NCBI GenBank assembly: GCA_028716245.1
Contig: JAQUQW010000003.1
Coordinates: 20,638-84,637, forward strand
From: Candidatus Omnitrophota bacterium
Lineage (GTDB): Bacteria > Omnitrophota > Gorgyraeia > Gygaellales > Profunditerraquicolaceae
Reading direction: 5' to 3'
Length of the DNA stretch: 64,000 bases
The notes under the pieces were generated by a model that was given only the letters and a program-made list of their open reading frames with translations, had not been told where the DNA came from and ran no database searches. Both the position numbers and the translations under genes were made by a program. Positions 17,488 to 34,392 of the stretch are shown here, piece by piece. Numbering within the stretch: the stretch's first letter is position 1; each line of letters begins with the position of its first letter.

Positions 17488-17826
17488 CTAAGATTTAAAT
17501 ACCACTTTTTCGATATGTATTTGCCGGTTTGCCGCAGAACGCTGGCCTCCCCCGGCACATTTGGGGCAGAGAAAACTTTTATTTATGCGTTCAAAATCCA
17601 AATTACATTTAGGACAATATAATTTTGTCTCTACCGGGTGAACGGATAATTCGACATCTTTAAGCCGGCTATCTTTTTCTCTAATCTCATCAAAATAAAG
17701 TTTGATGGCATCCGGATCCAAACCGCTGGAATCACTAACCGACAAAATAATTTCCAAGACTTCTTTTCCTTTGCCTTGAGTTAAAGCGTCCCGGATAATC
17801 TTCTCAACAAGATGATACTCATGCAC
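17488..17826 (-). CDS. hypA: hydrogenase nickel-insertion protein HypA
   Basis: 112 aa; MHEYHLVEKII N-terminus, two CxxC pairs (CPKC...CPKC). Confidence 0.75.
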   Translation of the reverse strand: MHEYHLVEKIIRDALTQGKGKEVLEIILSVSDSSGLDPDAIKLYFDEIREKDSRLKDVELSVHPVETKLYCPKCNLDFERINKSFLCPKCAGGGQRSAANRQIHIEKVVFKS

Positions 17827-18175
17827 GCCTAAAAACCTCCTCCTCCCGGATTTGAGTAGAGGCAGAATAGGTGTTCTTCATCGATAAACATTTTACCGGA
17901 CAGATCTCCGGGCAATAGCCGCAGGAAACGCAACGCAAGCGATCAATCTTCCATTGCTTATCCGCCTTGGTTACGGTAATTGCCTGGGCAGGGCATTTCC
18001 TCTGGCACATACCGCAATAGATACACTTATTTATATCTATGGTAATGCTGCCGCGCGTATTCTTATAGTAAGTTTTAGGCACAAAAGGATAGCGAAAGGT
18101 TGCCGGCTTGGCGCACAAACTCTTTAAAACCTTTTTGGCCATCACGAATATCTTCATTCTTATCGCTCCGTACAA
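17819..18175 (-). CDS. echF: Ech hydrogenase 2x[4Fe-4S] ferredoxin subunit (NuoI-like)
   Basis: CIYCGMCQRKCP and CVSCGYCPEICP motifs. Confidence 0.8.
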   Translation of the reverse strand: MYGAIRMKIFVMAKKVLKSLCAKPATFRYPFVPKTYYKNTRGSITIDINKCIYCGMCQRKCPAQAITVTKADKQWKIDRLRCVSCGYCPEICPVKCLSMKNTYSASTQIREEEVFRRA

Positions 18176-19245
18176 CTTATACAGGGATCAATGGTCAAAA
18201 CTAAAATCGGCACATCCGCCAGCTGGCATCCCGGCAATAATTTAACCATCGCCGGCACATTGGCAAATGTGGGAGTGCGCACCCTTAGGCGCTGGAGCAA
18301 CCGCGAACCGTCCGCCTTGGCGTAATAAATTACCTCGCCCCGCGGCTGTTCAGTGCGGGCAAAAAATTCACCGTTTGGCGTGCCGGTCACTTTAACTTCA
18401 ATATCCCCAGGTTGGATTTTTCCAACTGCCTGCTTAATCATGTCGATAGATTGAAAAATTTCCCGTATCCTTACCCGGCAGCGGCTATAACTATCCCCGG
18501 CTGTCTCGGTGATCGGCTCAAAATCAATTTCTTTATAAACAGCATAACCTAATTTACGCGTATCTAAACTGACCCCGCTGGCCCTCAGTGTCGGACCGAC
18601 TGCCCCTAAAATATAGGCATCTTCCTTGCTTAATACGCCGACCCCCACTAAACGGTGTTTAACTGAACTGTCATTTATAAAAACATTGGTAATCTCTCTG
18701 ATTTCTTTGGCGTAATTTTCTAATTTTGCCGTTATCTCTGCTAATTTTTCCGGAGAGATATCTTTTCTTACTCCGCCGATTTTGGCTGAACCAAAGATCA
18801 CTCTGCCTCCGGTAGTCTCTTCGATAATATCCAGGATCTTTTCTCTCAATCTCCAGGTGTGCATAAACAGGGCTTCAAAACCAAAACCATCGGCCATTAA
18901 TCCCAGCCATAAAAGATGGCTGTGGATCCGCGATAACTCCGACCAAATTACGCGCAAGTAATTGGCCCGCTTAGGCACCTCTATCTGCATGATCTCTTCA
19001 ATCGCAATGCAATATGTCAGGCCGTGGATAAAACTGCAGATGCCGCAAATCCTTTCGGCAACATAAACAAAATCGATGAAATCCCTCTTCTCTACTAACC
19101 TCTCAAGCCCGCGATGGATAAATCCCAGCGAAGGAATCGCCTCGATTACCTTTTCATCCTCAACCACCAGATCCAAGTGGATCGGTTCAGGCAACACCGG
19201 GTGCTGCGGGCCAAAAGGTATAATTGTCCTCTTAGGGCTGTTCAT
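18160..19245 (-). CDS. echE: group-4 [NiFe] hydrogenase large subunit (NuoD-like)
   Basis: N-terminal RICGICSFIH and C-terminal DPCISCTER Ni-Fe ligand motifs; 361 aa. Confidence 0.85.
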   Translation of the reverse strand: MNSPKRTIIPFGPQHPVLPEPIHLDLVVEDEKVIEAIPSLGFIHRGLERLVEKRDFIDFVYVAERICGICSFIHGLTYCIAIEEIMQIEVPKRANYLRVIWSELSRIHSHLLWLGLMADGFGFEALFMHTWRLREKILDIIEETTGGRVIFGSAKIGGVRKDISPEKLAEITAKLENYAKEIREITNVFINDSSVKHRLVGVGVLSKEDAYILGAVGPTLRASGVSLDTRKLGYAVYKEIDFEPITETAGDSYSRCRVRIREIFQSIDMIKQAVGKIQPGDIEVKVTGTPNGEFFARTEQPRGEVIYYAKADGSRLLQRLRVRTPTFANVPAMVKLLPGCQLADVPILVLTIDPCISCTER

Positions 19246-19591
19246 TTTGCGGATTGAACCCTCTCTTTATAGAAGTACGGTAAAAATTACCTTTATAGTC
19301 TAAGGCGATGTCCTTAAATTTTACGCCGAATAAATCATGAATTTCGTTTTCATATAAAAAAGCGCACCAGTAAATACTGCTTATACTGGGAACCTCAATA
19401 TTTAAATCCACAAGTTTGATCTTAACATTGGTAAAATGATACCCCTTATCAAAAGAGTAGTTTATCTCCAGGCACTCCGGTAGCTTGGTAGCCCCGATCT
19501 GCACCAAGCGGTGGCCGGATTTACAAAAATCTACGGCCTGGCTTAACAAATCCTTAATCTCGATATTAATTAATTTCTGCTCTTCGATCAT
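19232..19591 (-). CDS. echD: Ech hydrogenase NuoC-like subunit
   Basis: 119 aa, position between small and large subunit genes. Confidence 0.6.
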   Translation of the reverse strand: MIEEQKLINIEIKDLLSQAVDFCKSGHRLVQIGATKLPECLEINYSFDKGYHFTNVKIKLVDLNIEVPSISSIYWCAFLYENEIHDLFGVKFKDIALDYKGNFYRTSIKRGFNPQNEQP

Positions 19592-19593: not shown

Positions 19594-20502
19594 TTATTCT
19601 TTCTTAACCAATTTTTCCATGAATACCCTGTCACGTAATTGCGAAACCTGCTCCCGCTTGAATATTTTATACCCTAATCTCTGGTGAAAATAAATATTAC
19701 GCCTGCTCTTATGCCCGGTAAATGTCTCAAACCTTTTGGCCTGCCCAAATTTGGCCTCAATCCTGCGCATCAGTTTTCTGCCCAGGCCGTAATTCTGATA
19801 AGTTGGATGCACGATCAACCTTCTGATATGGCAAGTACCTTCTTCCAGATAAGCGCGCACCGAACCGACAATCCTGTCATGCATCACACTTTTTAAAAAA
19901 ACCTTATTTTTAAAATCCCCCCTTAACTCCTCAAGGGTCTGGGTTAGCGGAGAAAGGCTAAAATCATTATAGATCTCAGCTTCGCTTTGATAAGCTAATT
20001 TTTGTAAATCCAGTATTTCCTGCGCGTCTTCAATAGCAGCTTCGGTAATAACCAGTTCCCCATTACCTGCGCTGATTTCCTGGAACTTTTTATGTTTTTC
20101 TTCCAGGATCGCAAGCCCCCTAACCACCCCGTCAATAATTGCCTCCGGCCTCACCGCGCATCCCGGCACATAAATATCCACGGGAATAATCTTATCCACT
20201 CCCCCGGAAACATTATAACATTCCCTAAATACTCCTCCGGAGGTAGCGCAAATACCCAAAGCCAAAACCACTTTTGGTTCAGGCATCTGATGATAAATAT
20301 TCTGGATTACTTCTTTATTCTGCTCGTTCACTGAGCCGGTAACCAGAAAAATATCGGCATGCTTGGGATTGCCGGTATTGATTATCCCAAAACGCTCCAA
20401 GTCATAGACCGGAGTAAGGCAAGCCAATACCTCGATATCGCAGCCATTACAACTTGAGGCATCATAATGAATAACCCAGGGAGATTTTTTTAAATATGAC
20501 AT
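19594..20502 (-). CDS. echC: hydrogenase small subunit (NuoB-like) fused to C-terminal GNAT acetyltransferase domain
   Basis: Residues 1-145: CNGC...GICATSGG...VPGCAVRPE four-Cys proximal-cluster pattern. Residues ~150-302: GNAT motif A RRLIVHPTYQNYGLGRKLM. Single uninterrupted ORF. Confidence 0.7.
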   Translation of the reverse strand: MSYLKKSPWVIHYDASSCNGCDIEVLACLTPVYDLERFGIINTGNPKHADIFLVTGSVNEQNKEVIQNIYHQMPEPKVVLALGICATSGGVFRECYNVSGGVDKIIPVDIYVPGCAVRPEAIIDGVVRGLAILEEKHKKFQEISAGNGELVITEAAIEDAQEILDLQKLAYQSEAEIYNDFSLSPLTQTLEELRGDFKNKVFLKSVMHDRIVGSVRAYLEEGTCHIRRLIVHPTYQNYGLGRKLMRRIEAKFGQAKRFETFTGHKSRRNIYFHQRLGYKIFKREQVSQLRDRVFMEKLVKKE

Positions 20503-20503: not shown

Positions 20504-21358
20504 TTATTTGGGTAAAATAAACAAAACTAAAATATTCCCAAAACCAAAAATTAAAGTTACCAGCCAGCAGCTTAATAAAGCCAGCTGCCATTTTACTCTG
20601 GCAAAAGTATTATCAATAAGGATAACCAGAAAATAGGCCAATAAACTCAAAAGCACTCCGGCAATCGGCAGATGGGCGAAGAACAAATAAATAAAACCTA
20701 AAACCAGCATATTTTCATACCAATGCGCTAACTCAATCATCGCCAGAGCCTTTCCGGAGAACTCCGTCGTAATCCCTTTAACCAGTTCCTGATGCGCATG
20801 GTGCGAAGTAGACAGGTCAAAGGGTGATTTCCTGAATTTCATCGCCAGGATATACAATAAACCAAACAAGATTCCCGGCAGGTAATAAATCAACGGACGG
20901 GCGAAGGAAACGATATCGGAAACATAAAAACTGCGCGTAACCATATACATACCCACGGCGCTTAAAATAATGATCGGCTCATAAGCCATCATCTGCAATA
21001 ATTCTCTGTGGGCTCCGATAAAGCTGTACGGGGAGCTGGCCTTAAATCCGGCTAAGACAAAAAATATGGCCGCTAGTGTAAAAGCAAAGATCACCAGCAA
21101 TATATCTTTTCCGGTAAAAAACAGGGCGCCGGTGAAAACGACTAAGACTAGAAAAAACCCGATGTAGAAATTCTGGGATCTCCTTACTACCAGGTTCTCT
21201 TTCTGGATTAATTTTAAAACATCAAAAAACGGCTGTAAGATCGGCGGCCCGATCCTGGACTGCATCCGCGCGGTAATCTTGCGGTCTAATCCAGCCAGAA
21301 GCCCTCCGGTTAAAGGAGCCAGGATCAAATATAATAAAATATTCAGGAATATATTCAT
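20504..21358 (-). CDS. echB: Ech hydrogenase membrane subunit (NuoH/HycD-like)
   Basis: 284 aa polytopic; MNIFLNILLYLILAPLTGGLLAGLDRKITARMQSRIGP N-terminus typical of NuoH family. Confidence 0.8.
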   Translation of the reverse strand: MNIFLNILLYLILAPLTGGLLAGLDRKITARMQSRIGPPILQPFFDVLKLIQKENLVVRRSQNFYIGFFLVLVVFTGALFFTGKDILLVIFAFTLAAIFFVLAGFKASSPYSFIGAHRELLQMMAYEPIIILSAVGMYMVTRSFYVSDIVSFARPLIYYLPGILFGLLYILAMKFRKSPFDLSTSHHAHQELVKGITTEFSGKALAMIELAHWYENMLVLGFIYLFFAHLPIAGVLLSLLAYFLVILIDNTFARVKWQLALLSCWLVTLIFGFGNILVLFILPK

Positions 21359-23238
21359 AATAACGATAGACCCAACATGGCAATGACTAAAATAATACTG
21401 ATGATTATTCCGAATTTAAGTAGTTTTGTTTCGTTAAAATAATCTCCCAGATAATAATTATACATCGACATACTCCTAACTCTCCCAGATGAGCCGCGAA
21501 ACTCAACGTTATTATTGATATTTGCCCCGCCCAAATAGGCATCCACGACTTTAACCCGCTTACCGTAATTAATAAAACTCAAAGGAAAAAGCATAACCAT
21601 CGCCAGCATGATCGACATAATCACGATATTCCCCTGGCTCATGGTAATCGTGCGGGCATAAATTTCAAGGCAATACGGCTCAATTAAAACCGAGGAAACC
21701 ACCGGAAAAAACCCGCAAACACTCAGCGTTAATACCGATAGGGCTCCCAACGGAAACCACTGGCTCTTGCTGATCCCCTGCTCAATTTCATCTTTAGGTT
21801 CGGCAACGATGATGAGCTTACCCATCCATTTTACCCAGAAAAAAAGCGTTACCGAACTTCCGAAAACTACAAATATGGCAAGCAAAGGATTGTAATCTAC
21901 CAGCGCTTTAAGCGCTGCCCATTTGCTGATTAACATGCCAAAGGGGGCCAAAAACATACCGGCCATGCCAATCTGGAGCATAATCGAGAGCTTGGGCAGA
22001 GTAATAATTAGCCCGGACATGTTTTCAATATTACGGCTGTGGATCTTATGCTCCACCGTACCGACACAAAGGAACAAAAGGCACTTGGCAGTAGCGTGAA
22101 ATATTATAAGCAGGATTGCCGCCCACATCGCTTCATATGTTCCGATGCCGGCGCATAAAACAATCAGCCCTAGGTTGGCAATAGTAGAATAAGCCAAAAT
22201 CTTCTTGGCATCGCTCTGTGAAACAGCCGCAAACGAAGCAACCAGAAAAGTTATTCCCCCGATTAATGCCAGAGCAAAACCGGCCATTGTTCCTTGTAAA
22301 ACCGCGGCAAATCTCAAAATGATATATACCCCTGCTTTAACCATGGTGCTGGAATGCAGGAGCGCCGATACCGGAGTTGGCGCAACCATTGCTCCCAATA
22401 ACCACGAAGAAAAAGGCAGCTGCGCGGATTTAGTCAGGCCGGCAAAACAAATCAACATCACCGGAATCAAAGCCCAGGCCTTACCCAATAACATTACTTT
22501 GCTCAACTCAATACTCCCGGTTGTCCTGTAAAAAATAATGATTGCCGCCAAAAATGCCAGCCCTCCTAAAAGATTAAATTCCAAAGCCCGGAAGGCATTG
22601 TTCCTTGACTCCTGCGTCCGCTTATACCCGATCAGCAGGAAGGAACAAATCGTAGTAATCTCCCAGAAAAAATAAAGCCAGAGAAGATTGTTGGAAAAAA
22701 TCACCCCGAACATCGCCGAAAGAAATACAAAAACAGCAAAGAAAAAGAAATTACGCCTATCTTTTATCTCCTTATGATAGTCACGGTGAAAATCCTCCAT
22801 ATATCCGGTAGAATAAATACAGATTAGACTGCCGATAATACCTACTACCAGGGACATGATAATCGAAAATTTATCGATGAATAAATTATTTTCTGAAATA
22901 ACCTTTGCCCCGCAGGAATACTCAAAATAAAACATTAAGGCTGCTTGGAGTAAAATAAGCAGGGTTACCCAGGCGCGTTTGAATTTTATCCCTAAATATA
23001 AAATATAACCTGCCAAAGCCCATTCCGTAAAAAACATGATTTTATCAACCAGATGGGACTCGGCCTTAAAATATTGGATACTTTGATGAAAAGTACTGAT
23101 GAGCAGGACAATGACCGCTGAAGAAATGGCCAAGGCGGATATCTTTACTAGACCAGCCCGCAATCTTTCCCCTTTTAATAAAAGCAGGATTACGGATATG
23201 AATAACGGAAATATGATTAAAAACTCTAATAAATACAA
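21355..23238 (-). CDS. echA: Ech hydrogenase antiporter-like membrane subunit (NuoL/MrpA-like)
   Basis: ORF track extends to 23334, overlapping gltD by 86 nt. A TTG at 23238 preceded by AAGGAG (5-nt spacing) gives MYLLEFLIIF... and a 10-nt gap to the gltD stop. Many TM helices. Confidence 0.75.
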   Translation of the reverse strand: MYLLEFLIIFPLFISVILLLLKGERLRAGLVKISALAISSAVIVLLISTFHQSIQYFKAESHLVDKIMFFTEWALAGYILYLGIKFKRAWVTLLILLQAALMFYFEYSCGAKVISENNLFIDKFSIIMSLVVGIIGSLICIYSTGYMEDFHRDYHKEIKDRRNFFFFAVFVFLSAMFGVIFSNNLLWLYFFWEITTICSFLLIGYKRTQESRNNAFRALEFNLLGGLAFLAAIIIFYRTTGSIELSKVMLLGKAWALIPVMLICFAGLTKSAQLPFSSWLLGAMVAPTPVSALLHSSTMVKAGVYIILRFAAVLQGTMAGFALALIGGITFLVASFAAVSQSDAKKILAYSTIANLGLIVLCAGIGTYEAMWAAILLIIFHATAKCLLFLCVGTVEHKIHSRNIENMSGLIITLPKLSIMLQIGMAGMFLAPFGMLISKWAALKALVDYNPLLAIFVVFGSSVTLFFWVKWMGKLIIVAEPKDEIEQGISKSQWFPLGALSVLTLSVCGFFPVVSSVLIEPYCLEIYARTITMSQGNIVIMSIMLAMVMLFPLSFINYGKRVKVVDAYLGGANINNNVEFRGSSGRVRSMSMYNYYLGDYFNETKLLKFGIIISIILVIAMLGLSLL

Positions 23239-23248
23239 AATTTTCTCC

Positions 23249-24691
23249 TTAAAGCATCGGCAGGATTGAACCGCCCATAAGGTATTTGTCGATATGGTGG
23301 GCAGAGCGCCTGCCTTCGGCAATTGCCCAGACAATCAGGGATTGGCCGCGGCGCATATCTCCACAGGCAAACACGCCTTTCTTGGAAGTCATAAAATTAT
23401 CGCCTGTTTTTACATTTCCCTTTTGGTCTAAATCCAATTTAAGCTCTTCAATTATTCCTTTTTTCTCAGGATGCAAGAAACCCAAAGCCAAAATTACCAG
23501 GTCCGTTTCAATTTCAAACTCTGAACCCTTTAGCTCCTGCATAACCGGACACCCCGCAGCATCTTTTTTAAACTCCACCCTTACGCAGGAAAGTTTTTTA
23601 ACTTTTCCGCTTGAGCCGGTAAATTTTTTGGTTAATATCGACCAATCCCTATTGCCTCCCTCTTCATGGCTGGTCGAAGATTTAAGCAATAAAGGATACT
23701 TTGGCCAAGGGTAATCTTTAGTGCGGCAGGAGGCTGGTTTAGGCATAATCTCGATCTGCATAACGCAGGATGCGCCTTGACGATGCGCCACTCCTACGCA
23801 ATCCGCGCCGGTATCCCCGCCTCCGACAACCACTACGCGTTTATTTTTAGCGTCAATTAACTGGTCAGCTGGAATTTTTTCTCCCTTAATCCTCTTATTG
23901 GACTGGATCAGGTAATCCATGGCAAAATTGATTCCGAAAAGATTCCTGCCCTCGATATTCAGGTCCCGCGGCTGCCGTGACCCGCAGGCAATACAAACCA
24001 CATCAAACTCATCCACCAGTTTCTTAATTTTATAATCAACCCCTATATTTGAAGAAGTCTTAAATTTTATCCCTTCCTTTTGCAGAATCTTTATCCGGCG
24101 ATCGATTATTTTCTTCTCCAGCTTAAACTCAGGAATACCATAACGTAAGATTCCTCCAAGAGCATCATCTCTTTCAAAAACCACAACATTATGCCCGGCA
24201 GAATTTAGCTGGTCGGCGCAAGCCAGGCCGGCTGGCCCGGAACCGACTATGGCTATTTTTTTCCCGGTTCTCTTTTTTAAAATTCGCGGCTGGATTAAAC
24301 CATTCTTAAAGGCATACTCGATAATACTCAACTCGTTTTCCCGGATAGTTACCGGGTCATCATTAATCCCCAAAACACAGGCATATTCGCAAAGCGCCGG
24401 ACAAATCCTTCCGGTGATCTCGGGAAGATTATTAGTGGCCTTAAGTAAACTAAAGGCTTTTTCCCACTGGCCATGGAAAAGAAGGTCATTCCATTCCGGT
24501 ATATAATTACCGATGGGGCAGCCAGAGTGGCAAAAAGGCGTGCCGCAATCCATACAGCGCGATGCCTGCTCCTTGCTTTGAAATTCAGTCCGCAATAAAT
24601 TAACCTCGGCGAAATCTTTTATTCTTTCGCAAACCGGACGGTAGGTCCCGGGCTGTCTTTTAACTTTTAAGAATCCTTTTGGATCACCCAT
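23249..24691 (-). CDS. gltD: glutamate synthase small subunit (NADPH; GltD family)
   Basis: 480 aa; N-terminal Cys cluster, two dinucleotide-binding GxGxxG motifs (VGSGPAGL; VVGGGDTG). Confidence 0.85.
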   Translation of the reverse strand: MGDPKGFLKVKRQPGTYRPVCERIKDFAEVNLLRTEFQSKEQASRCMDCGTPFCHSGCPIGNYIPEWNDLLFHGQWEKAFSLLKATNNLPEITGRICPALCEYACVLGINDDPVTIRENELSIIEYAFKNGLIQPRILKKRTGKKIAIVGSGPAGLACADQLNSAGHNVVVFERDDALGGILRYGIPEFKLEKKIIDRRIKILQKEGIKFKTSSNIGVDYKIKKLVDEFDVVCIACGSRQPRDLNIEGRNLFGINFAMDYLIQSNKRIKGEKIPADQLIDAKNKRVVVVGGGDTGADCVGVAHRQGASCVMQIEIMPKPASCRTKDYPWPKYPLLLKSSTSHEEGGNRDWSILTKKFTGSSGKVKKLSCVRVEFKKDAAGCPVMQELKGSEFEIETDLVILALGFLHPEKKGIIEELKLDLDQKGNVKTGDNFMTSKKGVFACGDMRRGQSLIVWAIAEGRRSAHHIDKYLMGGSILPML

Positions 24692-27600
24692 CAGTATATT
24701 CTCCCAGGTCAGCCTTCTTAACCGCCTCTTTCTCTTCCAATATGCGTTTGTACTCTAAAGGCATGACTTTGATAAAAAGATTGGTGTACTTATGAAAATC
24801 ATCGAGGATCTCTTTTGCTCTGGGGCTTTGCGTGTATTTGTGGTGATTAAAAAGCAACTTTTTGATCGTCTCGGCGTCTTGGGCGTCTATTTTCTCTAAA
24901 GCCACCATTTCCAAATTGCATCTTTTCTTAAAATCGTTTCTTTCATCCAGGCAATAAGCAATCCCTCCGGACATCCCTGCCCCGAAATTCCTGCCGCATT
25001 TGCCCAGCACAACCACCCTTCCTCCAGTCATATATTCACAGCCATGGTCTCCCAAACCCTCAATAACCGCATTTAACCCGGAATTGCGGATACAGAACCT
25101 CTCTCCGGCAACCCCCCGGATATATGCCTCCCCGTTAATTGCCCCGTAAAAAGTAGTATTGCCGATAATAATATTTTCTTCCGGTTTATATTCAACTGAC
25201 TTATCCGGGTAAATTATAATTTTACCTCCGGATATCCCTTTACCCACATAATCATTAGCCATGCCTTCAAGAGTAAAAGTAATCCCTTTGGCCAAAAAAG
25301 CCCCGAAACTTTGGCCGGCTACCCCTCTAAAATTACATTTAATCGTATCTTCGGGCAGCCCGCTTTCGCCAAACCTCTTGCAGACCTCTCCGCTTAACAT
25401 TGCCCCGGTGGCGCGGTTTATGTTTTCAATCTTTTGATTTATTTCAACGTTTTTAGCTTCTATTAATGCCGGATTGGATAACTCAATCAGCCTTAAATCC
25501 AGGATCTTATCAATGCCGTGATCCTGCTGCTTACAATAATGCGTAATTACTGATTCTGGCACCTGAGGTTTATAAAGAATTTTAGAAAAATCGATTTCTT
25601 TTGCCTTCCAGGGTAAAATCCCCTGATTTAATTCCAGCAGATCCACCCTGCCGACCATCTCTTCTAATTTTTTTATGCCCAGAGAACTCATGATCTGGCG
25701 CAGTTCATTGGCAATAAAGGTAAAATAATTGATGATATATTCCGGCCTGCCGGTAAATCTTTTCTCCAAAACCTCATCCTGGGTAGCGATCCCGACCGAA
25801 CAATTATTTAAATTACAATGGCGCAGCATCACGCAGCCCAAGACGATTAACACCGCGGTGCAGAAGCCGAATTCTTCAGCGCCAAGTAACGCGGCAATGG
25901 CCACATCGCGTCCGGTGCGCATCTGCCCGTCAGTCTGCAGGCGTACCCTGCTCCTTAAATCATTTAAGACTAAAGTCTGGTGCGTTTCTGAAAGCCCCAA
26001 CTCCCAGGGGAGGCCGGCGTGTTTAATTGAACTTAAAGGAGAGGCTCCGGTACCTCCGTCCTGGCCGGAAATAAGGATCATATCGGCATGCCCCTTGGCT
26101 ACGCCGGCTGCGACTGTGCCTACGCCGATTTCAGAAACCAGCTTTACGCTGATACGCGCTTTAGGATTCGCGTTTTTTAAATCAAAAATAAGCTGCGCTA
26201 AATCTTCGATTGAATAAATATCATGGTGCGGAGGAGGGGAAATTAAAGTAACTCCGGGGGTAGTATAACGGGTCTTGGCGATTATCGCGCTTACCTTATG
26301 CCCGGGAAGCTGCCCGCCTTCGCCGGGTTTTGCGCCTTGGGCCATTTTTATTTGGATTTCATCGGCATTAACTAAATAATTTGTGGTTACGCCGAAACGC
26401 CCGGAGGCAACCTGCTTTATCGCGCTTCTGGCAGAATCTCCGTTGGGCAACGGAACAAAACGCGCGGGGTCTTCGCCGCCCTCTCCGGTATTGGACCTTG
26501 CGCCTAACCTATTCATGGCGATAGCAATCGTTTCATGCGTGGCGCGGCTGATTGAGCCAAAACTCATCGCCCCGGTAGCAAACCTTTTTACAATTTCTTC
26601 AACCGGCTCAACCTGATCTAATGGTATAGATTTTTGTGTTTTAAATTTAAGTAAACTCCTTAAGGTAGTCGGATTTTTTGACTGATCATTGATAAAATTA
26701 GTAAACTCCTGATATTTTTTAAGATCATTATTGCGCACCGCGTCCTGCAAAGCGGCGATGCTATCCGGGTTCCAGAGATGAAATTCTCCGTCGCGCCTCC
26801 ACTGATAAAGGCCGCCTGAAGCCAGATGATTTTCACCTTGGCTCCTTACGGCAAAAGCCTCCTTATGGCGCAGGATAGTTTCTTTAACAATTACGTCTAA
26901 AGATACACCATTAATCCTGGAAACGGTACCGGTAAAATATTCATCAATCACGTTTTGGCTTAATCCCACTGCTTCAAAAATCTGGGCCCCCCGGTAGCTC
27001 TGTAAGGTCGATATACCCATTTTGGAGAGAACCTTCAAGATCCCCTTGTCGATGGCTTTTATATAATTATGCTTGGCCTTTTCAAAACCAAGATTGAGTT
27101 CTTTTTCTTTTGCCATCTCCTCCAGGAGCTTAAAAACAAGATAGGGATTAACGCAATCAACTCCGTAGGCAAAAAGCAGGGCAAAATGGTTTACCTCGCG
27201 GGGCTCGGCACTCTCTAGAATAATGCTGATCTGCGTCCGCAAAGAATGCCGCACCAGATAATGGTGCAGTGCTGAAACCGCCAGGAGGCTGGGAATGCCG
27301 GCATAATTTTTATTCACTCCGCGGTCGCTTAAAATAATAAAAGTATAGCCTTTTTTTATCGCTTCTTCTGCTTCCTGAAATATTTTCTTAAGCGCTTTAG
27401 AAAAGTCTGTTTTGCCGCCTACCTTAAAAAGCAATGAAATGGTTTTGGTTTTAAAACCGTTCTTTCTTATTCTGCGAATCTTCTTAATCTCGATATCGCT
27501 TAAGACCGGTCGGGCCACTAATAATTTATGGCAGTGATCCTCGCCATCGCTTAAAATATTCTTTTCCGGGCCTAAATAACTAGCCAGGCTCATTACCAGT

Positions 27601-29252
27601 TCCTCACGGATCGGATCAATCGGAGGGTTAGTTACCTGGGCAAATAATTGTTTGAAGTAAGAAAACAAAAGTTGCGGCTTAGCTGAAAGCACGGCATGCG
27701 GAGTATCATTACCCATCGAGCCCACCGGCTCTTGAGCATTTTCAGCCATTGGCTTAATAAGCATTTTCAGATCTTCGCGGGTATAACCAAAAGCCTTTAG
27801 CTGGGTTAAAATAGGGACAGCGACCATTTTTTTCTTCACCTCTTTATTCAAGAAAAAATGGGCGCTGTCCCTATTTTTATCTAGTTCTAGTATATTTTTC
27901 TTAACCCATTGCTCATATGGCTTATCTTCGCTGAGCTCTTTTTTTATCTGGCTGTCTTCAATTATACATCCGGCTTTTGTATCGATAAAAAATGTCTTGC
28001 CCGGCTCAAGCCGTCCTGAATGCAGAATAGCGGAAGGCTCAATATCCAGAACTCCGACCTCAGAAGCCATCACCACAAAATCATCTTTGGTCACAATATA
28101 GCGGCACGGCCGCAATCCGTTACGATCAAGGACCGCTCCGATAGACACACCATCAGTAAAAACCATGGCTGCCGGGCCATCCCAAGGTTCGATAAGGCAG
28201 GTATGATATTTATGGAAAGCCCTTACCTCTTGGGCAAGCAGATTATTCTGCTCCCAGGCAGCCGGTATAAGCATCGAGATTGACTGCGTCAGGCTTCTCC
28301 CGGACAAGGTTAGGAGCTCAAAAACATTATCAATGGTCGCCGAGTCACTACCGCCGGGCACAATTACCGGGAATATTTTCTTTAGGTCTTGGCCAAACAA
28401 TTCGCTCTTTAAAAAATCTTGGCGGGCGCGCATCCAGTTAATATTACCTCTTAAGGTGTTGATCTCTCCGTTATGGGCGATAAACCTAAACGGCTGAGAC
28501 AGGTCCCAGGTAGGAAAAGTGTTGGTGGAGTAACGTGAATGCACCATGGCTAAAGCGCTTTTAATCTCCTGGGAACTCAAATCCAAAAAGAAGTTTTCCA
28601 CCTGATGCGGCATAAGCAGGCCTTTATAGATAAAGGTGCGGCTGGATAAGCTGGGAATATAGAAAAAAGTTTTTTGTTTTATTCTGGAAGCGCGGATAAT
28701 ATTTTCAACCTGCTTGCGGATAACATAAAGCTTCCTTTCAAAAGCCGGGCAATCGGTTATTTTTTTACCGCGCCCGATAAAAATCTGCTCAATTTGCGGC
28801 TGGGTATCTACGGCGGTTTTACCGATATCCTGATTATTTACCGGCACACTGCGCCAGCCTAAAAATACTAAAGCTTCATCATGAATGACTTTTTCAAATG
28901 TTTCTTTGCAGAATTTGCGCTCGTTGGTATCTTGAGGCAAAAATACTAACCCTGAGGCATATTCACCTTCTTTAGGCAGACGGATATTTTCTTTTTCGCA
29001 TACAGAAGAAAAAAATTCATGCGGAAACTGAATAAGCAGGCCTGCTCCGTCACCGGTTTTAGGATCTGCGCCGGTTGCTCCGCGGTGGCTCAGGCGGCGT
29101 AAAACCTCCAGGCCCTGCTTGACAATATCATTACTCTTTTTACCTTTGATATTGCAAACAAATCCCACTCCACATGAGTCATGCTCAAACCGTGGATCGT
29201 ATAAACCCTGCTTTTTTGGCAAATGTACCTGTTTCATAAATTTGTTTTCCAC
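24684..29252 (-). CDS. gltB: glutamate synthase large subunit
   Basis: 1522 aa; N-terminal amidotransferase CGVGFV, FMN/Fe-S central domain, C-terminal GXXG-repeat domain. Confidence 0.95.
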   Translation of the reverse strand: MENKFMKQVHLPKKQGLYDPRFEHDSCGVGFVCNIKGKKSNDIVKQGLEVLRRLSHRGATGADPKTGDGAGLLIQFPHEFFSSVCEKENIRLPKEGEYASGLVFLPQDTNERKFCKETFEKVIHDEALVFLGWRSVPVNNQDIGKTAVDTQPQIEQIFIGRGKKITDCPAFERKLYVIRKQVENIIRASRIKQKTFFYIPSLSSRTFIYKGLLMPHQVENFFLDLSSQEIKSALAMVHSRYSTNTFPTWDLSQPFRFIAHNGEINTLRGNINWMRARQDFLKSELFGQDLKKIFPVIVPGGSDSATIDNVFELLTLSGRSLTQSISMLIPAAWEQNNLLAQEVRAFHKYHTCLIEPWDGPAAMVFTDGVSIGAVLDRNGLRPCRYIVTKDDFVVMASEVGVLDIEPSAILHSGRLEPGKTFFIDTKAGCIIEDSQIKKELSEDKPYEQWVKKNILELDKNRDSAHFFLNKEVKKKMVAVPILTQLKAFGYTREDLKMLIKPMAENAQEPVGSMGNDTPHAVLSAKPQLLFSYFKQLFAQVTNPPIDPIREELVMSLASYLGPEKNILSDGEDHCHKLLVARPVLSDIEIKKIRRIRKNGFKTKTISLLFKVGGKTDFSKALKKIFQEAEEAIKKGYTFIILSDRGVNKNYAGIPSLLAVSALHHYLVRHSLRTQISIILESAEPREVNHFALLFAYGVDCVNPYLVFKLLEEMAKEKELNLGFEKAKHNYIKAIDKGILKVLSKMGISTLQSYRGAQIFEAVGLSQNVIDEYFTGTVSRINGVSLDVIVKETILRHKEAFAVRSQGENHLASGGLYQWRRDGEFHLWNPDSIAALQDAVRNNDLKKYQEFTNFINDQSKNPTTLRSLLKFKTQKSIPLDQVEPVEEIVKRFATGAMSFGSISRATHETIAIAMNRLGARSNTGEGGEDPARFVPLPNGDSARSAIKQVASGRFGVTTNYLVNADEIQIKMAQGAKPGEGGQLPGHKVSAIIAKTRYTTPGVTLISPPPHHDIYSIEDLAQLIFDLKNANPKARISVKLVSEIGVGTVAAGVAKGHADMILISGQDGGTGASPLSSIKHAGLPWELGLSETHQTLVLNDLRSRVRLQTDGQMRTGRDVAIAALLGAEEFGFCTAVLIVLGCVMLRHCNLNNCSVGIATQDEVLEKRFTGRPEYIINYFTFIANELRQIMSSLGIKKLEEMVGRVDLLELNQGILPWKAKEIDFSKILYKPQVPESVITHYCKQQDHGIDKILDLRLIELSNPALIEAKNVEINQKIENINRATGAMLSGEVCKRFGESGLPEDTIKCNFRGVAGQSFGAFLAKGITFTLEGMANDYVGKGISGGKIIIYPDKSVEYKPEENIIIGNTTFYGAINGEAYIRGVAGERFCIRNSGLNAVIEGLGDHGCEYMTGGRVVVLGKCGRNFGAGMSGGIAYCLDERNDFKKRCNLEMVALEKIDAQDAETIKKLLFNHHKYTQSPRAKEILDDFHKYTNLFIKVMPLEYKRILEEKEAVKKADLGEYTDG

Positions 29253-29617
29253 CTTGAGACATCAATACCTAATTTGTTTATTTTCACGCGCATTGTGTTA
29301 CGGTTAATCCCCAGGATGCGGGCGGCCTTAAGCTGGTTGCCTTCACAACGCTCTAGTGTCTGTTCGAGCAAAGGTTTCTCGATTGCTTCTAAAACGGATT
29401 TATATAATACTCCTTTTTTCTCAATAAACAATGAATTTTCTAATTCCACCACCCTATCTTTGATAAAAGCCAGGTCCCTTATACAATCCTTTTTCACGAC
29501 GCGGATCACGTTTTCCTGGCTTGTATCCGGGGATAAAGTATATCCCTCCTGCTTTAGCATTTTAGCCAAGGCTTCTTTTGTTTTAATTTCATCTTCGGTA
29601 ATAAGTATGGTAATCAT
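29234..29617 (-). CDS. Fis/NtrC-type HTH_8 DNA-binding protein (orphan C-terminal domain; degenerate receiver-like N-terminus)
   Basis: C-terminal GNQLKAARILGINRNTMRVKINKLGI; overlaps gltB start by 19 nt. Confidence 0.55.
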   Translation of the reverse strand: MITILITEDEIKTKEALAKMLKQEGYTLSPDTSQENVIRVVKKDCIRDLAFIKDRVVELENSLFIEKKGVLYKSVLEAIEKPLLEQTLERCEGNQLKAARILGINRNTMRVKINKLGIDVSRWKTNL

Positions 29618-29647
29618 ATCCTGCCTAAATTTTATGCATCGCTACTG

Positions 29648-29700
29648 ACAAAAAAGACGTTCATTTTGGCAAAAAACAGTTTTAGCCAGCATGAACGTCT
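29648..29700 (-). terminator. rho-independent terminator after glnN (bidirectional U/T tracts)
   Basis: AGACGTTCAT ... ATGAACGTCT 10-bp inverted repeat (29655..29664 / 29691..29700) with T/A runs on both sides. Confidence 0.4.
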
Positions 29701-29764
29701 ATGTTCTTTTTGTTATGTCTTAAGCACTACGCTGTGCTTACTATAATCTTATACTACTATGCCA

Positions 29765-31960
29765 CTATTTAATGAACAGCATTTCGCGATACTTAGGCAA
29801 ATCCCAGGCATCATCGGAAACTACGCATTCCAGCTGGTCAACATGCTTTCGAATATGCTCCATCAAAGGTTTAAGCTCATCAAAATAAAGCTTGGCGCGT
29901 TTTTCATTGCTTAGCTTCCTAGCATCCTCAAGCAGCTTAACCATTTCACCAACATTTCTGCGCACATAATATATCTTAGCGACTATTTCAGCCAAATGTT
30001 CTTTTTTGTCTTTTAATGCCGCGATATCTACTTTTAAGCCGGCATCTTTCTGCAACTTGACCAACGCGTCCAGGTTTGCCGCCAACAATTTTTCATATTC
30101 ATAGCCTGCCGGCACTACCGAAGCATTAACCATTTCGTTTAAGGTATTGGCCTCGATTTCAAGAATCAAGTTATACATATGGACCCAGATATGGTAACGG
30201 GCAATCAACTCTTCTTTAGAGAAGACTTTGTACTTCTCAAAAAGGGCAATATTCTCTTTTTTGGTTAAAGCTTCCAGGGATTCATAAGTTGAAGCGATAT
30301 TCGGTAACCCTCGCTTCTTGGCTTCTTTAATCCATTCTTCCGCGTAGTTATTTCCTTCAAAGCGGATATCTTTGGTTTCTTTAACAATCTTGGAAATTAC
30401 CATTAACACCGCGGAATTAAAATCCTTTCCCGTAGATTTGGCCCGCTTGATCTGTTCAGCGACATAATCAAGGCTTTCAGCAATGATGGTATTGATTACC
30501 GCAATGGGTGTGGAGATATTCTGCGATGAACCGACGGCACGGAATTCAAACTTTGCGCCGGTAAAAGCAAAAGGCGAAGTACGGTTACGGTCAGTTGAGT
30601 CCTTGTTGAATTTAGGCAAGCGGGCTATGCCTAAATCAATAATATCAGCTTTAGAAACTTTAGACTTAACCCCTTTTTCAATCATATTTAAAATAGAGGT
30701 TAACTGCTCCCCTAAGAATACACTAATAATCGCCGGAGGGGCTTCATTAGCGCCTAAGCGGTGCTCGTTGCCGGCAAGGGCAACTGAAGCGCGCAATAAA
30801 TCGGCGTGCAGATAAACCGCCCTTAAAACCGCGGCTAGGACGGCTAAAAATTGTAAATTATCTTCCGGAGTCTGTCCCGGATTAAGTAAATTATCGCCTT
30901 TATCATCTGCCAGCGACCAGTTTAAATGCTTGCCGCTGCCGTTGATTCCGGCAAAAGGTTTCTCATGCAATAAACAAACCAGGCCATGGCGTAAAGCAAC
31001 TTTTTTCATCAATTCCATAAGCAACTGATTGTGATCGGCGGCAATATTTGATTCTTCAAATATCGGAGCAAATTCATACTGATGCGGGGCAACTTCATTG
31101 TGCCGGGTCATTACCGGTATACCCAATTTATAAGCCTCTTCAGCCACCTCAAACATAAAATTAACCACCCGCTCTTTAATCGTGCCGAAATACTGATCCT
31201 CTAACTGCTGGCCTTTAGGAGATGGCGCTCCAACCAGGGTCCGGCCGGTCATGATCAAATCCTGGCGTAAATTGTAATAGTTCTTATCGATCAGGAAATA
31301 TTCCTGCTCCGGCCCGCAGGTAGAAAATATCTTTTTTACATCTTTATGGCCGAAAAGTTTAATCAGGCCTAAAGCGGCATTGTTTAACGCTTCATCCGAA
31401 CGTAAAAGCGGCAGCTTCTTATCCAGGGCTTCTCCATGGTAAGAAATGAATATCGTGGGAATACAGAGAGTCTTACCGAGCTTGCTTTCAATAATAAATG
31501 CCGGGCTGGAAGGATCCCAAGCAGTATAACCTCTGGCTTCAAAGGTTGCCCGGATTCCTCCTGATGGAAAACTGGAGGCATCCGGTTCACCCTGGATTAA
31601 TTTATTCCCCGAGAATTTTTCGATTACTTTTCCCGGAGCGGTTATCGAAATAAAACTGTCATGCTTTTCCGCGGTAAGCCCGGTCATCGGCTGAAACCAG
31701 TGCGTATAATAAGTAGCGCCTTTTGCCATTGCCCAGTCTTTCATCGCGTTAGCAATCTCATTTGCCTGCGCTAAAGTTATGGTTTTACCTTCGGACATCC
31801 AGGTCTTGAATGCCTCAAAAGTACCTTTGGAAATATGCTTTTGCATGGTCTCGGTGCTGAAGGTATTCACACCGAAATAAGAAGAAACTTTTTTAGGAGA
31901 ATCTATTTTCTCTAATTCGGTACTTTTAATTTTAAATAAAACTTTCTGTCTTATACTCAT
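29765..31960 (-). CDS. glnN: glutamine synthetase type III
   Basis: 731 aa; GSIII-type N-terminal extension and catalytic domain; AGGAGG SD 6 nt upstream. Confidence 0.9.
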   Translation of the reverse strand: MSIRQKVLFKIKSTELEKIDSPKKVSSYFGVNTFSTETMQKHISKGTFEAFKTWMSEGKTITLAQANEIANAMKDWAMAKGATYYTHWFQPMTGLTAEKHDSFISITAPGKVIEKFSGNKLIQGEPDASSFPSGGIRATFEARGYTAWDPSSPAFIIESKLGKTLCIPTIFISYHGEALDKKLPLLRSDEALNNAALGLIKLFGHKDVKKIFSTCGPEQEYFLIDKNYYNLRQDLIMTGRTLVGAPSPKGQQLEDQYFGTIKERVVNFMFEVAEEAYKLGIPVMTRHNEVAPHQYEFAPIFEESNIAADHNQLLMELMKKVALRHGLVCLLHEKPFAGINGSGKHLNWSLADDKGDNLLNPGQTPEDNLQFLAVLAAVLRAVYLHADLLRASVALAGNEHRLGANEAPPAIISVFLGEQLTSILNMIEKGVKSKVSKADIIDLGIARLPKFNKDSTDRNRTSPFAFTGAKFEFRAVGSSQNISTPIAVINTIIAESLDYVAEQIKRAKSTGKDFNSAVLMVISKIVKETKDIRFEGNNYAEEWIKEAKKRGLPNIASTYESLEALTKKENIALFEKYKVFSKEELIARYHIWVHMYNLILEIEANTLNEMVNASVVPAGYEYEKLLAANLDALVKLQKDAGLKVDIAALKDKKEHLAEIVAKIYYVRRNVGEMVKLLEDARKLSNEKRAKLYFDELKPLMEHIRKHVDQLECVVSDDAWDLPKYREMLFIK

Positions 31961-31972
31961 TTCTTCCTCCTA

Positions 31973-32018
31973 GCCCACAAGGGCACACCCGCGCAATTCC
32001 TTATAAGCGCGGGGTGTT
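31973..32018 (-). repeat. GC-rich hairpin element copy 1 (REP-like / candidate 5'-UTR RNA structure) directly upstream of glnN SD
   Basis: gcccacaagggcacacccgcgcaattccttataagcgcggggtgtt; 11-bp stem ACACCCGCGC/GCGCGGGGTGT plus small hairpin GCCC-ACAA-GGGC. Confidence 0.6.
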
Positions 32019-32104
32019 GCATGAAATAGTTAATTTATTCTACCACAATCAGTAAAAATTAAAAGAGGCATTCTTTAAGGTCCCAGAACGCCCCTGTTCT
32101 CTCT

Positions 32105-32145
32105 AAGTACAAGTAAAAAACTTGCGCTTCTGGTAACCTGTTTTC
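32105..32145 (-). promoter_or_regulatory. conserved promoter-region motif copy A (TACAAGTAAAAA-N10-TGGTAACC)
   Basis: One of 4 similar ~45-nt segments (others 34008..34050, 35993..36040, 44633..44680), each just after a minus-strand stop codon and 100-250 nt before the next start. Confidence 0.35.
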
Positions 32146-32487
32146 TTACCCAATAGCTATTGCCCCGCGTTCTTCAGTTCTTATACGCACACACTCCTTA
32201 AGATCCAAAACAAAGATCTTGCCATCCCCGGTTTCACCGGTCTTAGCCCCTTTAACAATGGCTTTGATTGTCGGCTCAAGATAATTATCATTTACGGCAA
32301 TTTCAAGACGAATTTTACGCAAAAGGTTTCCGGTTTCCCTGGCCCCCCGATAAACTTCCGTCACGCCTTTCTGCCGGCCATGGCCTAGGACCTCGCTTAC
32401 CGTAAGCAAATTCACCTGCGCTTTATACAACTCTTCTTTTACTTCCTCTAATTTATACGGTTGAATTATCGCAATGACTAATTTCAT
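32146..32487 (-). CDS. glnK: nitrogen regulatory protein P-II
   Basis: 113 aa MKLVIAIIQPYK...; T-loop ...GRQKGVTEVYRG (Tyr51). AGGAGG SD before ATG 32487. The ORF-track TTG extension to 32523 translates the repeat element and is rejected. Confidence 0.9.
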   Translation of the reverse strand: MKLVIAIIQPYKLEEVKEELYKAQVNLLTVSEVLGHGRQKGVTEVYRGARETGNLLRKIRLEIAVNDNYLEPTIKAIVKGAKTGETGDGKIFVLDLKECVRIRTEERGAIAIG

Positions 32488-32499
32488 GTATCCCTCCTT

Positions 32500-32545
32500 G
32501 CCCACAAGGGCACACCCGCGCAATTCCTTATAAGCGCGGGGTGTT
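32500..32545 (-). repeat. GC-rich hairpin element copy 2 in amt-glnK intergenic region
   Basis: Identical to copy 1 over 45 nt; abuts the amt stop codon and the glnK SD. Confidence 0.6.
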
Positions 32546-33770
32546 ATTCTAAAATTGTATATGCGCGTTCACGATGCTGGGTAAGGTCAAGGCCAACCAG
32601 CTCATCCTTTTCGCTTACCCGCATCCTAAAGAAGACATCTACCAGTTTGTAAATAACGAAAGTGGCAAAGAAAGTGTAACTAACCGCAACCACAACCGCA
32701 ACTAATTGTATCAGCAGCTGTTTAGAATTACCATAGAATAATCCATTTGCGCCGGCCGGGTTAATTATCTTAGAAGCCAATACCCCTGTCAAAAGCGTGC
32801 CAAGTATCCCTCCGACGCCATGCACGCCAAAAGCATCCAAAGAATCATCATAACCAAACCGCGGTTTGGTTACGGCAACCGCGATAAAACAAATTATGCT
32901 GGCGGCAATCCCGATAATAATGGCTGAAATCGGGCTGACAAATCCTGAGGCAGGAGTAACAGTAGCAAGTCCTGCAATTGAACCGGTTACGATTCCAAAT
33001 ACCGTGGGCTTGCCATTACGGATCCACTCCAAAAATGCCCAGCTTAAACCCGCTGCTGCTGCGGCAGTATTGGTAGCAATAAAAGCGCTTACGGCAACTC
33101 CATTTACCGCTAAAGCGCTTCCGGCATTAAAACCATACCAGCCAAACCATAAAAGCGCAGTCCCCAAAACTACAAAAGGAAGATTATGCGGCGATGGCGT
33201 ATGCTCCAGGTTTTTTCGCTTACCGATAACAATCGTCGTAACTAAAGCGGCGATGCCTGCGCTGGTATGCACGACAATTCCTCCGGCAAAATCCAAGACA
33301 CCCAGGTTCCTGAGCCATCCGCCAACTCCCCAAACCCAGTGGCACAAAGGATCATAAACAAATGTTGCCCAGAGCAAAGTGAAAACTAAAAATGCCGAAA
33401 ACTTCATCCGCTCGGCAAAAGCGCCGATAATTAAAGCCGGAGTAATCACGGCAAACATCATCTGAAAAACCATAAATGCCTGATGCGGGATAGTCGCGGA
33501 ATAACCCGCGTAAGGAGTCGCCCCCACTCCGTTTAAGCCAAACCAACTAAGCCCTCCCCAAAATCCGTTGCCCGGGGCAAATGCAAGGCTGTAACCAAAA
33601 AGTATCCATTGCAAAGATAATAAACATAAGGCCACAAAACATTGCATTAAGACACTTAAGATATTCTTGCGCCTGACCATGCCGCCGTAGAAAAAAGCCA
33701 GGCCGGGGGTCATCAACATTACAAAGGCCGCCGACATCAAAACGAATAACGTATCTGCTTGATTAATCAT
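32544..33770 (-). CDS. amt: ammonium transporter Amt
   Basis: ~408 aa, 11 TM, Amt signature regions; GGGAGGTGAG SD favours ATG at 33770 (the ORF-track start 33782 lies within the SD). Confidence 0.9.
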   Translation of the reverse strand: MINQADTLFVLMSAAFVMLMTPGLAFFYGGMVRRKNILSVLMQCFVALCLLSLQWILFGYSLAFAPGNGFWGGLSWFGLNGVGATPYAGYSATIPHQAFMVFQMMFAVITPALIIGAFAERMKFSAFLVFTLLWATFVYDPLCHWVWGVGGWLRNLGVLDFAGGIVVHTSAGIAALVTTIVIGKRKNLEHTPSPHNLPFVVLGTALLWFGWYGFNAGSALAVNGVAVSAFIATNTAAAAAGLSWAFLEWIRNGKPTVFGIVTGSIAGLATVTPASGFVSPISAIIIGIAASIICFIAVAVTKPRFGYDDSLDAFGVHGVGGILGTLLTGVLASKIINPAGANGLFYGNSKQLLIQLVAVVVAVSYTFFATFVIYKLVDVFFRMRVSEKDELVGLDLTQHRERAYTILE

Positions 33771-33821
33771 CTCACCTCCCATAAATAGTTCTTTCTCTTA
33801 AGCCCCATTTCCCGATTAGCT

Positions 33822-33859
33822 TCGAAACAGTTTCCAAGTTGAAGCGGAAACTGTTTCGA
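33822..33859. repeat. perfect 14-bp inverted repeat (TCGAAACAGTTTCC-N10-GGAAACTGTTTCGA) ~50 nt upstream of amt
   Basis: Read directly from sequence. Confidence 0.5.
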
Positions 33860-33914
33860 TTAATTCCTCTTATACTACACAACTGGATAATCAACTGTGT
33901 AAAATTTGGGTAAA

Positions 33915-33960
33915 TAAAAAAGCGCCTTTACGGTTTTTTCTTAACCGTATTGGCGCCGAC
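33915..33960 (-). terminator. putative rho-independent terminator after second glnK
   Basis: Minus strand GGCGCCAAUACGG-loop-CCGUAAAGGCGC followed by UUUUUUAUUU. Confidence 0.35.
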
Positions 33961-34050
33961 ATTGCGCTATTCAATATAAACACTACAGCGTGCCTATATT
34001 AACTTATAATCATACAAGTAAACAATTGCTTGTTTTGGTAACTTAAATTT

Positions 34051-34392
34051 TTATCCTATCGCCGAGTTTCCCTGCTCTTCGGTGCGGATGCGGATACATT
34101 CCTTAAGATCCAGGATAAAGATTTTACCGTCGCCAGTTTCACCGGTCTTAGCCCCTTTAACAATAGCTTTGATTGTCTGGTCAAGGTAGTTATCATTCAC
34201 GGCAATCTCAAGACGAATTTTACGCAAAAGGTTTCCGGTTTCCTTCGAACCACGGTAAACTTCCGTCACGCCTTTCTGCCGGCCGTGCCCTAAAACTTCA
34301 CTTACGGTAATCAGGTTTACTTCCGCTTTATACAATTCTTCTTTTACTTCCTCTAATTTATACGGTTGAATTATCGCAATGACTAATTTCAT
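34051..34392 (-). CDS. glnK: nitrogen regulatory protein P-II (second copy)
   Basis: 113 aa, near-identical to the 32146 copy; Tyr51 present. Confidence 0.9.
   Translation of the reverse strand: MKLVIAIIQPYKLEEVKEELYKAEVNLITVSEVLGHGRQKGVTEVYRGSKETGNLLRKIRLEIAVNDNYLDQTIKAIVKGAKTGETGDGKIFILDLKECIRIRTEEQGNSAIG

Follow-up and report, generated by a model that had tools for sequence, protein, structure and literature searches.

A GNAT acetyltransferase domain joined to the small subunit EchC in Ech-type hydrogenase operons of Omnitrophota and other anaerobic phyla

The echC::GNAT gene and its product

A 64,000-nucleotide stretch of DNA from a Candidatus Omnitrophota bacterium (contig JAQUQW010000003.1, positions 20,638 to 84,637; hereafter the window) carries an operon for an Ech-type hydrogenase in which the gene for the small subunit, EchC, continues without a break into a GNAT acetyltransferase domain. 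The fused open reading frame (ORF), here called echC::GNAT, lies at 19594..20502 on the minus strand, starts with ATG and encodes 302 residues with zero internal stops, in agreement with the single uninterrupted frame reported in a preliminary description of this DNA. It is the third gene of a minus-strand operon, echA-echB-echC::GNAT-echD-echE-echF-hypA (assigned with Pfam and NCBIfam), and is separated from echB by 1 nucleotide and from echD by 2. The strand, and a histidine at residue 273 that is considered below, are two points absent from the preliminary description.

EchC proper, a NuoB-like [4Fe-4S] small subunit, takes up residues 1–145 (20068..20502, minus strand) and ends in a long C-terminal helix (residues 119–144). 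Residues 18–127 match Pfam family Oxidored_q6 (E 1.1e-31; 109.6 bits against a cut-off of 27), and residues 5–128 are assigned by NCBIfam to the NuoB subfamily PRK06411 (138.8 bits against a cut-off of 116). The ligands of the proximal [4Fe-4S] cluster, C18, C21, C85 and C115, are all present and are invariant in 52 homologues. The small subunit is complete, as had been claimed. A short linker follows (residues ~146–150, AGNGE; 20053..20067, minus strand), variable in sequence and fixed in length.

The GNAT domain occupies residues 151–302 (19597..20052, minus strand; stop codon at 19594–19596). Pfam family Acetyltransf_1 matches residues 190–278 (E 5.1e-11; 43.3 bits against a cut-off of 20.7); Acetyltransf_7 (42.3 bits against 27) and Acetyltransf_10 (40.6 against 23.6) are likewise above their gathering thresholds, and the three matches together span residues 190–296 with E values of 5e-11 to 3e-10. 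The acetyl-CoA-binding motif A recognised earlier lies at residues 232–245 (19768..19809, minus strand); its sequence, HPTYQNYGLGRKLM, contains Q236-x-x-G239-x-G241 and so fits the pattern Q/R-x-x-G-x-G/A. The general acid of GNATs is usually, though not in every case, a tyrosine that precedes the G-Y/F of motif B by four residues. Alignment to the FYRSMGF segment of 2atr places His273 (19684..19686, minus strand) at this position, and the window protein thus lacks the canonical tyrosine.

An AlphaFold2 model of the fused protein, built from 52 aligned sequences, has a mean predicted local distance difference test (pLDDT) score of 81.9 and a predicted template modelling (pTM) score of 0.54. 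It runs from an EchC core through helix 119–144 and a linker of about six residues into a canonical GNAT domain, modelled at pLDDT of approximately 90–95 over residues 151–298 in the order beta1-alpha-alpha-beta2-4-alpha3-beta5-alpha4-beta6-7. At so modest a pTM, the model does not predict how the two domains are oriented to each other. In a Foldseek search of the PDB, the best structural match to the N-terminal half was MbhJ of the Pyrococcus furiosus membrane-bound hydrogenase (6CFW chain J; 54% identity, E 2.4e-12), followed by HycG of Escherichia coli formate hydrogenlyase (7Z0S chain G; 42%), the two falling at E of about 1e-11 to 1e-12, and by complex I PSST/NuoB. The solved chains of MbhJ and HycG have no GNAT domain. 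The C-terminal half matched generic GNATs (PaiA 1tiq, 3fnc and 2i79; E ~3e-10, target-normalised template modelling score 0.7–0.8), and no PDB chain spanning both halves was returned by Foldseek. Pfam scores, modelled topology and structural matches all bear out the claim that residues from ~150 to 302 form a full GNAT fold.

Distribution of the fusion

The same fusion was sought in other sequence collections, as the preliminary description had proposed, and was found in at least 50 species and at least 120 protein clusters. The protein-cluster search covered 5.8 billion clusters, from which the best 120 matches were taken; these are 61–91% identical to the window protein, all of about 300 residues, and each contains both Pfam domains. 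They derive from NCBI, JGI, ENA and Logan assemblies. A genome scan, with one genome per GTDB species, yielded a fused gene of 298–310 codons in 50 species-level genomes, all of them metagenome-assembled genomes (MAGs). The taxa comprise Omnitrophota, Fibrobacterota (Chitinispirillaceae and 'Fibrobacter sp.'), Kiritimatiellia/Pontiellaceae, Lentisphaeraceae, other Verrucomicrobiota including Opitutaceae, Planctomycetia/Phycisphaerales and one Spirochaetaceae MAG. The closest genome is another Candidatus Omnitrophota MAG (JAQURC010000006.1), with 95% identity across the whole protein. In every locus long enough to show it, echB and echD flank the fused gene.

For comparison, 30 relatives with an unfused echC were drawn from Methanomicrobiales, Margulisbacteria, Lacunisphaera, Coriobacteriia, Clostridia and others. 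Their EchC has 145–169 residues, with one exception of 224 residues in a Coriobacteriales MAG, and echD follows directly. No GNAT gene was found beside echC, as would be expected of a pre-fusion state, within ~8 kb at these 30 loci. The preliminary description had allowed that the ORF might be a frameshift-fused neighbour gene, a view that a stop codon between the domains, or relatives with two separate genes, would have favoured; neither was seen. Fusions of matching length, at an identical place in the operon, recur in independently assembled genomes of at least 50 species, and the 30 unfused relatives lack the GNAT gene there. The frameshift option is therefore rejected.

The 224-residue EchC of the Coriobacteriales MAG (L060:6553-7227) carries a C-terminal extension of ~80 residues that has no Pfam match and differs from the GNAT extension. 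Long forms of EchD also occur, with 243–359 residues in Ech operons of Coriobacteriia and Clostridia against ~120 elsewhere (L063:8454-9524, L066:3756-4835, L076:8450-9334, L065:8448-9182 and L073:8446-9177). The idea that these might hide a GNAT domain was discarded, the C-terminal extensions having no significant Pfam domain. In many fused loci of Kiritimatiellia and Verrucomicrobiota, echA and echB are merged as well, into one ORF of ~940–970 codons with Proton_antipo_M followed by NADHdh (L017, at 845-3694, L021, L024, L026, L029-L034, L036, L040-L043, L045, L047 and L069); such operons hold two fusions.

In databases the fused proteins are usually labelled 'NuoB' or 'ech hydrogenase subunit C', although one JGI entry reads 'Ni,Fe-hydrogenase III small subunit/GNAT superfamily N-acetyltransferase'. 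By naming the proteins NuoB or EchC, annotation pipelines hide the extra domain. Full-text literature searches found no description of an EchC/NuoB–GNAT fusion, in keeping with the preliminary description, which knew of no described hydrogenase–GNAT fusion. The fusion is therefore present in sequence databases, yet undescribed and uncharacterised in the literature searched.

Origin of the GNAT domain

Residues 150–302 alone were searched against 1.84 billion representative sequences, giving 2459 matches at E<=1e-3 and 145 at E<=1e-30. The best matches are 45–57% identical, and most are free-standing proteins of 150–170 residues; EchC fusions account for only two representatives. Members of this subfamily are also found fused to IGPS/TrpC, PRAI/TrpF, S-adenosylmethionine (SAM) methyltransferases, glyoxalase, alpha/beta hydrolase, CHMI and DUF3795, and as tandem GNATs. 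Free-standing relatives of about 155 residues, such as HUT19480.1 (Anaerolineae) and MBU2552120.1 (Pseudomonadota MAGs), fall within this identity range and share the same invariant residues. They differ from the EchC-linked domains in standing alone or on other enzymes, in their variable context and in their motif B, described below.

Free-standing members bear only 'GNAT family N-acetyltransferase' as an annotation, and all of their NCBIfam scores are below cut-off. An assignment to RimI (TIGR01575 equivalog, cut-off 86.4 bits) was rejected, the fusion scoring 22.2 bits and the free-standing relatives 26–34. No consistent gene neighbourhood was found for the free-standing relatives. Sequence and profile searches of the PDB gave no close characterised relative, the best matches being 2atr (unknown function), RibT and the N-terminal acetyltransferase 6wqb, at E of 1e-11 to 3e-13. 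With no close characterised relative, no NCBIfam assignment and no consistent context, a substrate cannot be deduced by homology.

In a neighbour-joining (NJ) tree of 195 GNAT domains, 51 of the 52 EchC-linked domains fall in one pure clade, and the common ancestor of all 52 takes in one free-standing protein. A split with at least 50 of the 52 fused sequences and at most one outsider was recovered in 56 of 100 bootstrap replicates; in most others the largest pure fused clade held 33–37 sequences, about as many as belong to the Verrucomicrobiota/Kiritimatiellia/Lentisphaerae group. The shortness of the GNAT domain keeps this support moderate. The junction speaks for a single fusion event, since 20–22 residues separate the invariant L133 of the EchC terminal helix from the invariant A155 at the start of the GNAT domain in all 50 fused proteins, over a linker region that is only 15–50% identical across homologues. 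On these sequence comparisons, the GNAT domain was probably captured once by EchC.

The sole free-standing GNAT that groups with the fused clade is P0172 (L081:3-1035). It lies 52 nucleotides downstream of a gene with a 2-oxoacid:ferredoxin oxidoreductase gamma (POR, PF01558) domain, a single case that hints at a ferredoxin/acyl-CoA setting and is treated here as an anecdote, not as evidence.

Conservation and selection in the GNAT domain

Ratios of nonsynonymous to synonymous substitution (dN/dS) were calculated by the pairwise Nei–Gojobori method for seven pairs with unsaturated dS in the GNAT part. The NuoB part gave values of 0.01–0.10; for the GNAT part, six pairs lay at 0.04–0.16 and one at 0.41. 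As judged from these ratios, the GNAT part is clearly under purifying selection.

Across the 50 fused proteins, the first column of motif A is Q in 39 and R in 8, the second is G in 48, and the third is G in 29 and A in 20; P233 is present in all 50. Residues conserved in at least 80% of 62 free-standing relatives were compared with those conserved in at least 90% of the fused clade. Nearly all subfamily-conserved residues are kept after fusion (Q167, Y178, Q188, K204, R216, P233, G239, E249, T262, S266, N269, G277, Y278 and K297). The acetyl-CoA site and most of the pocket are, by alignment, preserved throughout the fused clade.

The exception is position 273. The motif-B tyrosine is found in 59 of the 62 free-standing relatives, against 37 of the 50 fused proteins, and is accordingly replaced in three and 13 cases, respectively. 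The replacement is histidine in the window protein and its two closest relatives (L001 and L002), phenylalanine in all six Fibrobacterota, and leucine, cysteine or phenylalanine in four other fused proteins. With these substitutions, classical catalysis may have become relaxed among some of the fused proteins. Conservation confined to the fused clade is seen at three positions, E176, F202 and E284, and, together with the replacement of the tyrosine, hints at a shift to a role in the fused context.

The ech operon and its neighbourhood

All six subunits of the operon were assigned by Pfam or NCBIfam, confirming that the fusion lies inside an echABCDEF operon, and the synteny is matched in 80 related loci. 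On the minus strand, echA (21355..23334) encodes a NuoL/Mrp-antiporter-like membrane subunit (Proton_antipo_M, 2.1e-56) and echB (20504..21358) a NuoH-like membrane subunit (NADHdh, 8.1e-46). The fused gene is followed by echD (19232..19591, minus strand), for a short NuoC-like subunit of 119 residues (Complex1_30kDa, 3.4e-09), and by echE (18160..19245, minus strand), for the [NiFe] large subunit (Complex1_49kDa, 6.1e-63; NiFeSe_Hases, 7.3e-14). The NuoI-like subunit with two [4Fe-4S] clusters is encoded by echF (17819..18175, minus strand; Fer4 families of Pfam and NuoI-like matches in NCBIfam). The last gene of the conserved module is hypA (17488..17826, minus strand; HypA, 4.4e-17), for a nickel metallochaperone.

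Two of these starts are mechanical calls. The TTG at 23334 would make echA longer than its relatives, which have 627 residues (626–630 in loci L001-L013), and the true start is probably near 23238, 10 nucleotides past the gltD stop. Similarly, echF is called from TTG 18175; the corresponding ORFs in L001, L003 and L006 have 112 codons, and the true start is probably ATG 18157, which gives 112 residues. With these two starts, the overlaps with gltD and echE vanish.

The gene order is that of Ech hydrogenase (group 4e, EchABCDEF), known from Methanosarcina barkeri and various anaerobic bacteria. In EchE, both NiFe-ligand motifs can be read from the translation, RICGICSFIH near residue 66 and DPCISCTER at the C-terminus; these two CxxC motifs set true hydrogenases apart from Ehr-type or complex-I-type relatives. 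The four cysteines of EchC and the two ferredoxin motifs of EchF are also as in Ech, and unfused EchC of Methanomicrobiales is 78–82% identical to residues 1–142. By every sequence-level criterion tried, the operon is that of an Ech-type group 4 energy-converting [NiFe] hydrogenase, predicted to depend on ferredoxin and to translocate ions. It departs from ordinary Ech in two respects: ordinary EchC has 145–157 residues and stops where the linker begins here, whereas the fused clade adds a GNAT domain of 150 residues, and the fused clade usually has hypA directly after echF. The latter arrangement is found in 27 fused loci against two unfused ones, and may reflect shared ancestry only.

Directly upstream of the operon lies a nitrogen-assimilation block (23249-35688, minus strand) with a type III glutamine synthetase, gltB, gltD and two amtB/P-II pairs; exbB/exbD and F-ATPase genes lie downstream. 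The adjoining glutamate synthase genes were discarded as a general clue to function, the gltBD–ech adjacency being confined to close Omnitrophota relatives (L001, L002, L003, L014 and L016). Elsewhere in the window, a P-type cation ATPase of 1084 residues (36775-40029, minus strand) has an N-terminal PTS EIIA-2 (PtsN-like) domain (E 1.8e-35), and its homologues flank three other fused ech loci (L006, L022 and L026). An amino-acid permease (42585-44453, minus strand) has a C-terminal P-II nitrogen-regulatory domain at residues 512–616 (E 6.6e-21). A 1462-codon ORF (54827-59215, minus strand) has no Pfam match at E<=1e-5.

Possible roles of the GNAT domain

The evidence from distribution, junction and selection shows that echC::GNAT is a genuine, old and selected fusion, most probably of one origin, that travels with the ech-hypA operon over several anaerobic phyla. 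In fermenting anaerobes, pyruvate:ferredoxin oxidoreductase (PFOR) makes acetyl-CoA and reduced ferredoxin together, and Ech re-oxidises the ferredoxin. The favoured explanation, held tentatively and with somewhat less than even confidence, is that the GNAT domain may be a docked acetyl-CoA-responsive module acting in cis on the Ech hydrogenase. Such a domain would have a set place on the cytoplasmic arm of Ech, where it would read acetyl-CoA/CoA. It might then acetylate a lysine or the N-terminus of an Ech subunit or of a ferredoxin partner, or pass on acetyl-CoA occupancy allosterically, and ferredoxin oxidation, H2 evolution and ion pumping would track the acetyl-CoA state. Two ideas of the preliminary description, coupling of acetyl-CoA status to hydrogenase activity and acetylation of a partner subunit, thus stay candidate functions. 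A stricter version, in which a rigidly docked GNAT on the peripheral arm acetylates or gates the ferredoxin:H+ module and so tunes proton reduction and ion pumping to the acetyl-CoA/CoA ratio, is conceivable and must be considered doubtful.

Two known kinds of system offer analogies only. Metabolic-enzyme folds are found on the peripheral part of complex I, where the accessory subunits include the acyl carrier protein, the short-chain dehydrogenase/reductase (SDR)-like 39-kDa subunit and the gamma-carbonic anhydrases of plant complex I. Those are separate mitochondrial polypeptides, whereas the GNAT domain is covalently attached to a NuoB homologue, and no homology is implied. Pat and AcuA, acetyl-CoA-dependent GNAT protein acetyltransferases that regulate acetyl-CoA synthetase, offer a possible working analogy; a specific sequence relationship is absent, there being only generic GNAT matches, and no target lysine was found here.

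Several observations weigh against a role in cis. EchB, the N-terminal part of EchC, EchD, EchE and EchF were compared between fused operons, unfused operons nested among them and other unfused operons, and no residue was present in at least 90% of the fused set and at most 20% of both unfused sets. A relaxed cut gave four weak fused-specific residues only, R6 and L348 in EchE and L99 and T109 in EchF. A co-evolved docking patch or a dedicated target lysine is not visible in the sequences of the Ech subunits, nor does the AlphaFold2 model contain confident packing between the domains. Monophyly of the fused operons was not recovered on an NJ distance tree of EchE, calculated without support values, in which 11 unfused operons nest among the fused ones. 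If this topology is right, the GNAT domain would have been lost several times, and it seems to be dispensable for Ech as such. The GNAT subfamily is moreover prone to fusion, so that fusion by itself is weak evidence of functional coupling, and it has no known acceptor substrate or activity, its best solved relatives being uncharacterised.

Much of this would fit a passenger that keeps an Ech-independent activity on a general metabolite or protein, a neighbouring gene having once lost its stop/start boundary and the fusion persisting since it is harmless and ensures co-expression. The promiscuous fusion of the subfamily to unrelated enzymes, the retention of nearly all subfamily-invariant residues, the lack of co-evolving residues in other Ech subunits, the unfused operons nested within the fused group and the inconsistent gene context of free-standing relatives all favour this explanation. 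It accounts less readily for a spacing between the domains that has stayed constant over deep divergence, or for a fusion kept with its operon in at least 50 species of several phyla. The canonical catalytic tyrosine is also lost more often than in free-standing relatives, three residues are conserved in the fused clade only, and none of the unfused relatives has a GNAT gene beside echC that might stand for the state before fusion. A mere passenger seems rather unlikely, while deserving serious consideration.

A structural accessory is a good deal less probable. Here the GNAT fold, sitting on the peripheral arm, would act as a scaffold or in assembly and would catalyse nothing, acetyl-CoA or CoA being at most a structural ligand; the enzyme-fold accessory subunits of mitochondrial complex I would be the parallel. 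The fixed length of the junction is consistent with this, as is the replacement of the canonical tyrosine in 26% of fused proteins, the window protein included; the GNAT domain is also modelled with high confidence, whereas the NuoB part needs partners. Nevertheless motif A stays invariant, as do 14 residues of polar or active-site type that the free-standing enzymes also have; a pure scaffold would not need these, and related Ech complexes assemble without a GNAT domain. Finally, an artefact, whether by frameshift, chimeric assembly or a miscalled ORF joining two genes, for which no evidence was found, can be practically dismissed, given the same uninterrupted fusion in the four assembly sources and the 50 species genomes, purifying selection across the junction and a locus (L001) that matches at 95% along its full length.

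Significance

Among the relatives of respiratory complex I, Ech-type hydrogenases are the simplest, and they set the H2/ferredoxin balance of many anaerobes; to our knowledge, almost nothing is known of how their activity is regulated. Anoxic lakes, sediments, groundwater and digesters commonly harbour Kiritimatiellia, Lentisphaerae, Fibrobacterota and Omnitrophota. If the GNAT domain were only a passenger, the fusion would be a modest note on a fusion-prone GNAT subfamily. If instead the stricter version of action in cis were right, energy-converting hydrogenases of the complex-I family would have in this domain their first described control element, post-translational or allosteric, that is built in covalently. 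In dozens of uncultured lineages, a conserved and selected domain that is predicted to bind acetyl-CoA is hard-wired to an electron-transfer subunit, and the fusion offers a concrete and testable way into a possible connection of carbon flux, in the form of acetyl-CoA, with H2 and energy metabolism.

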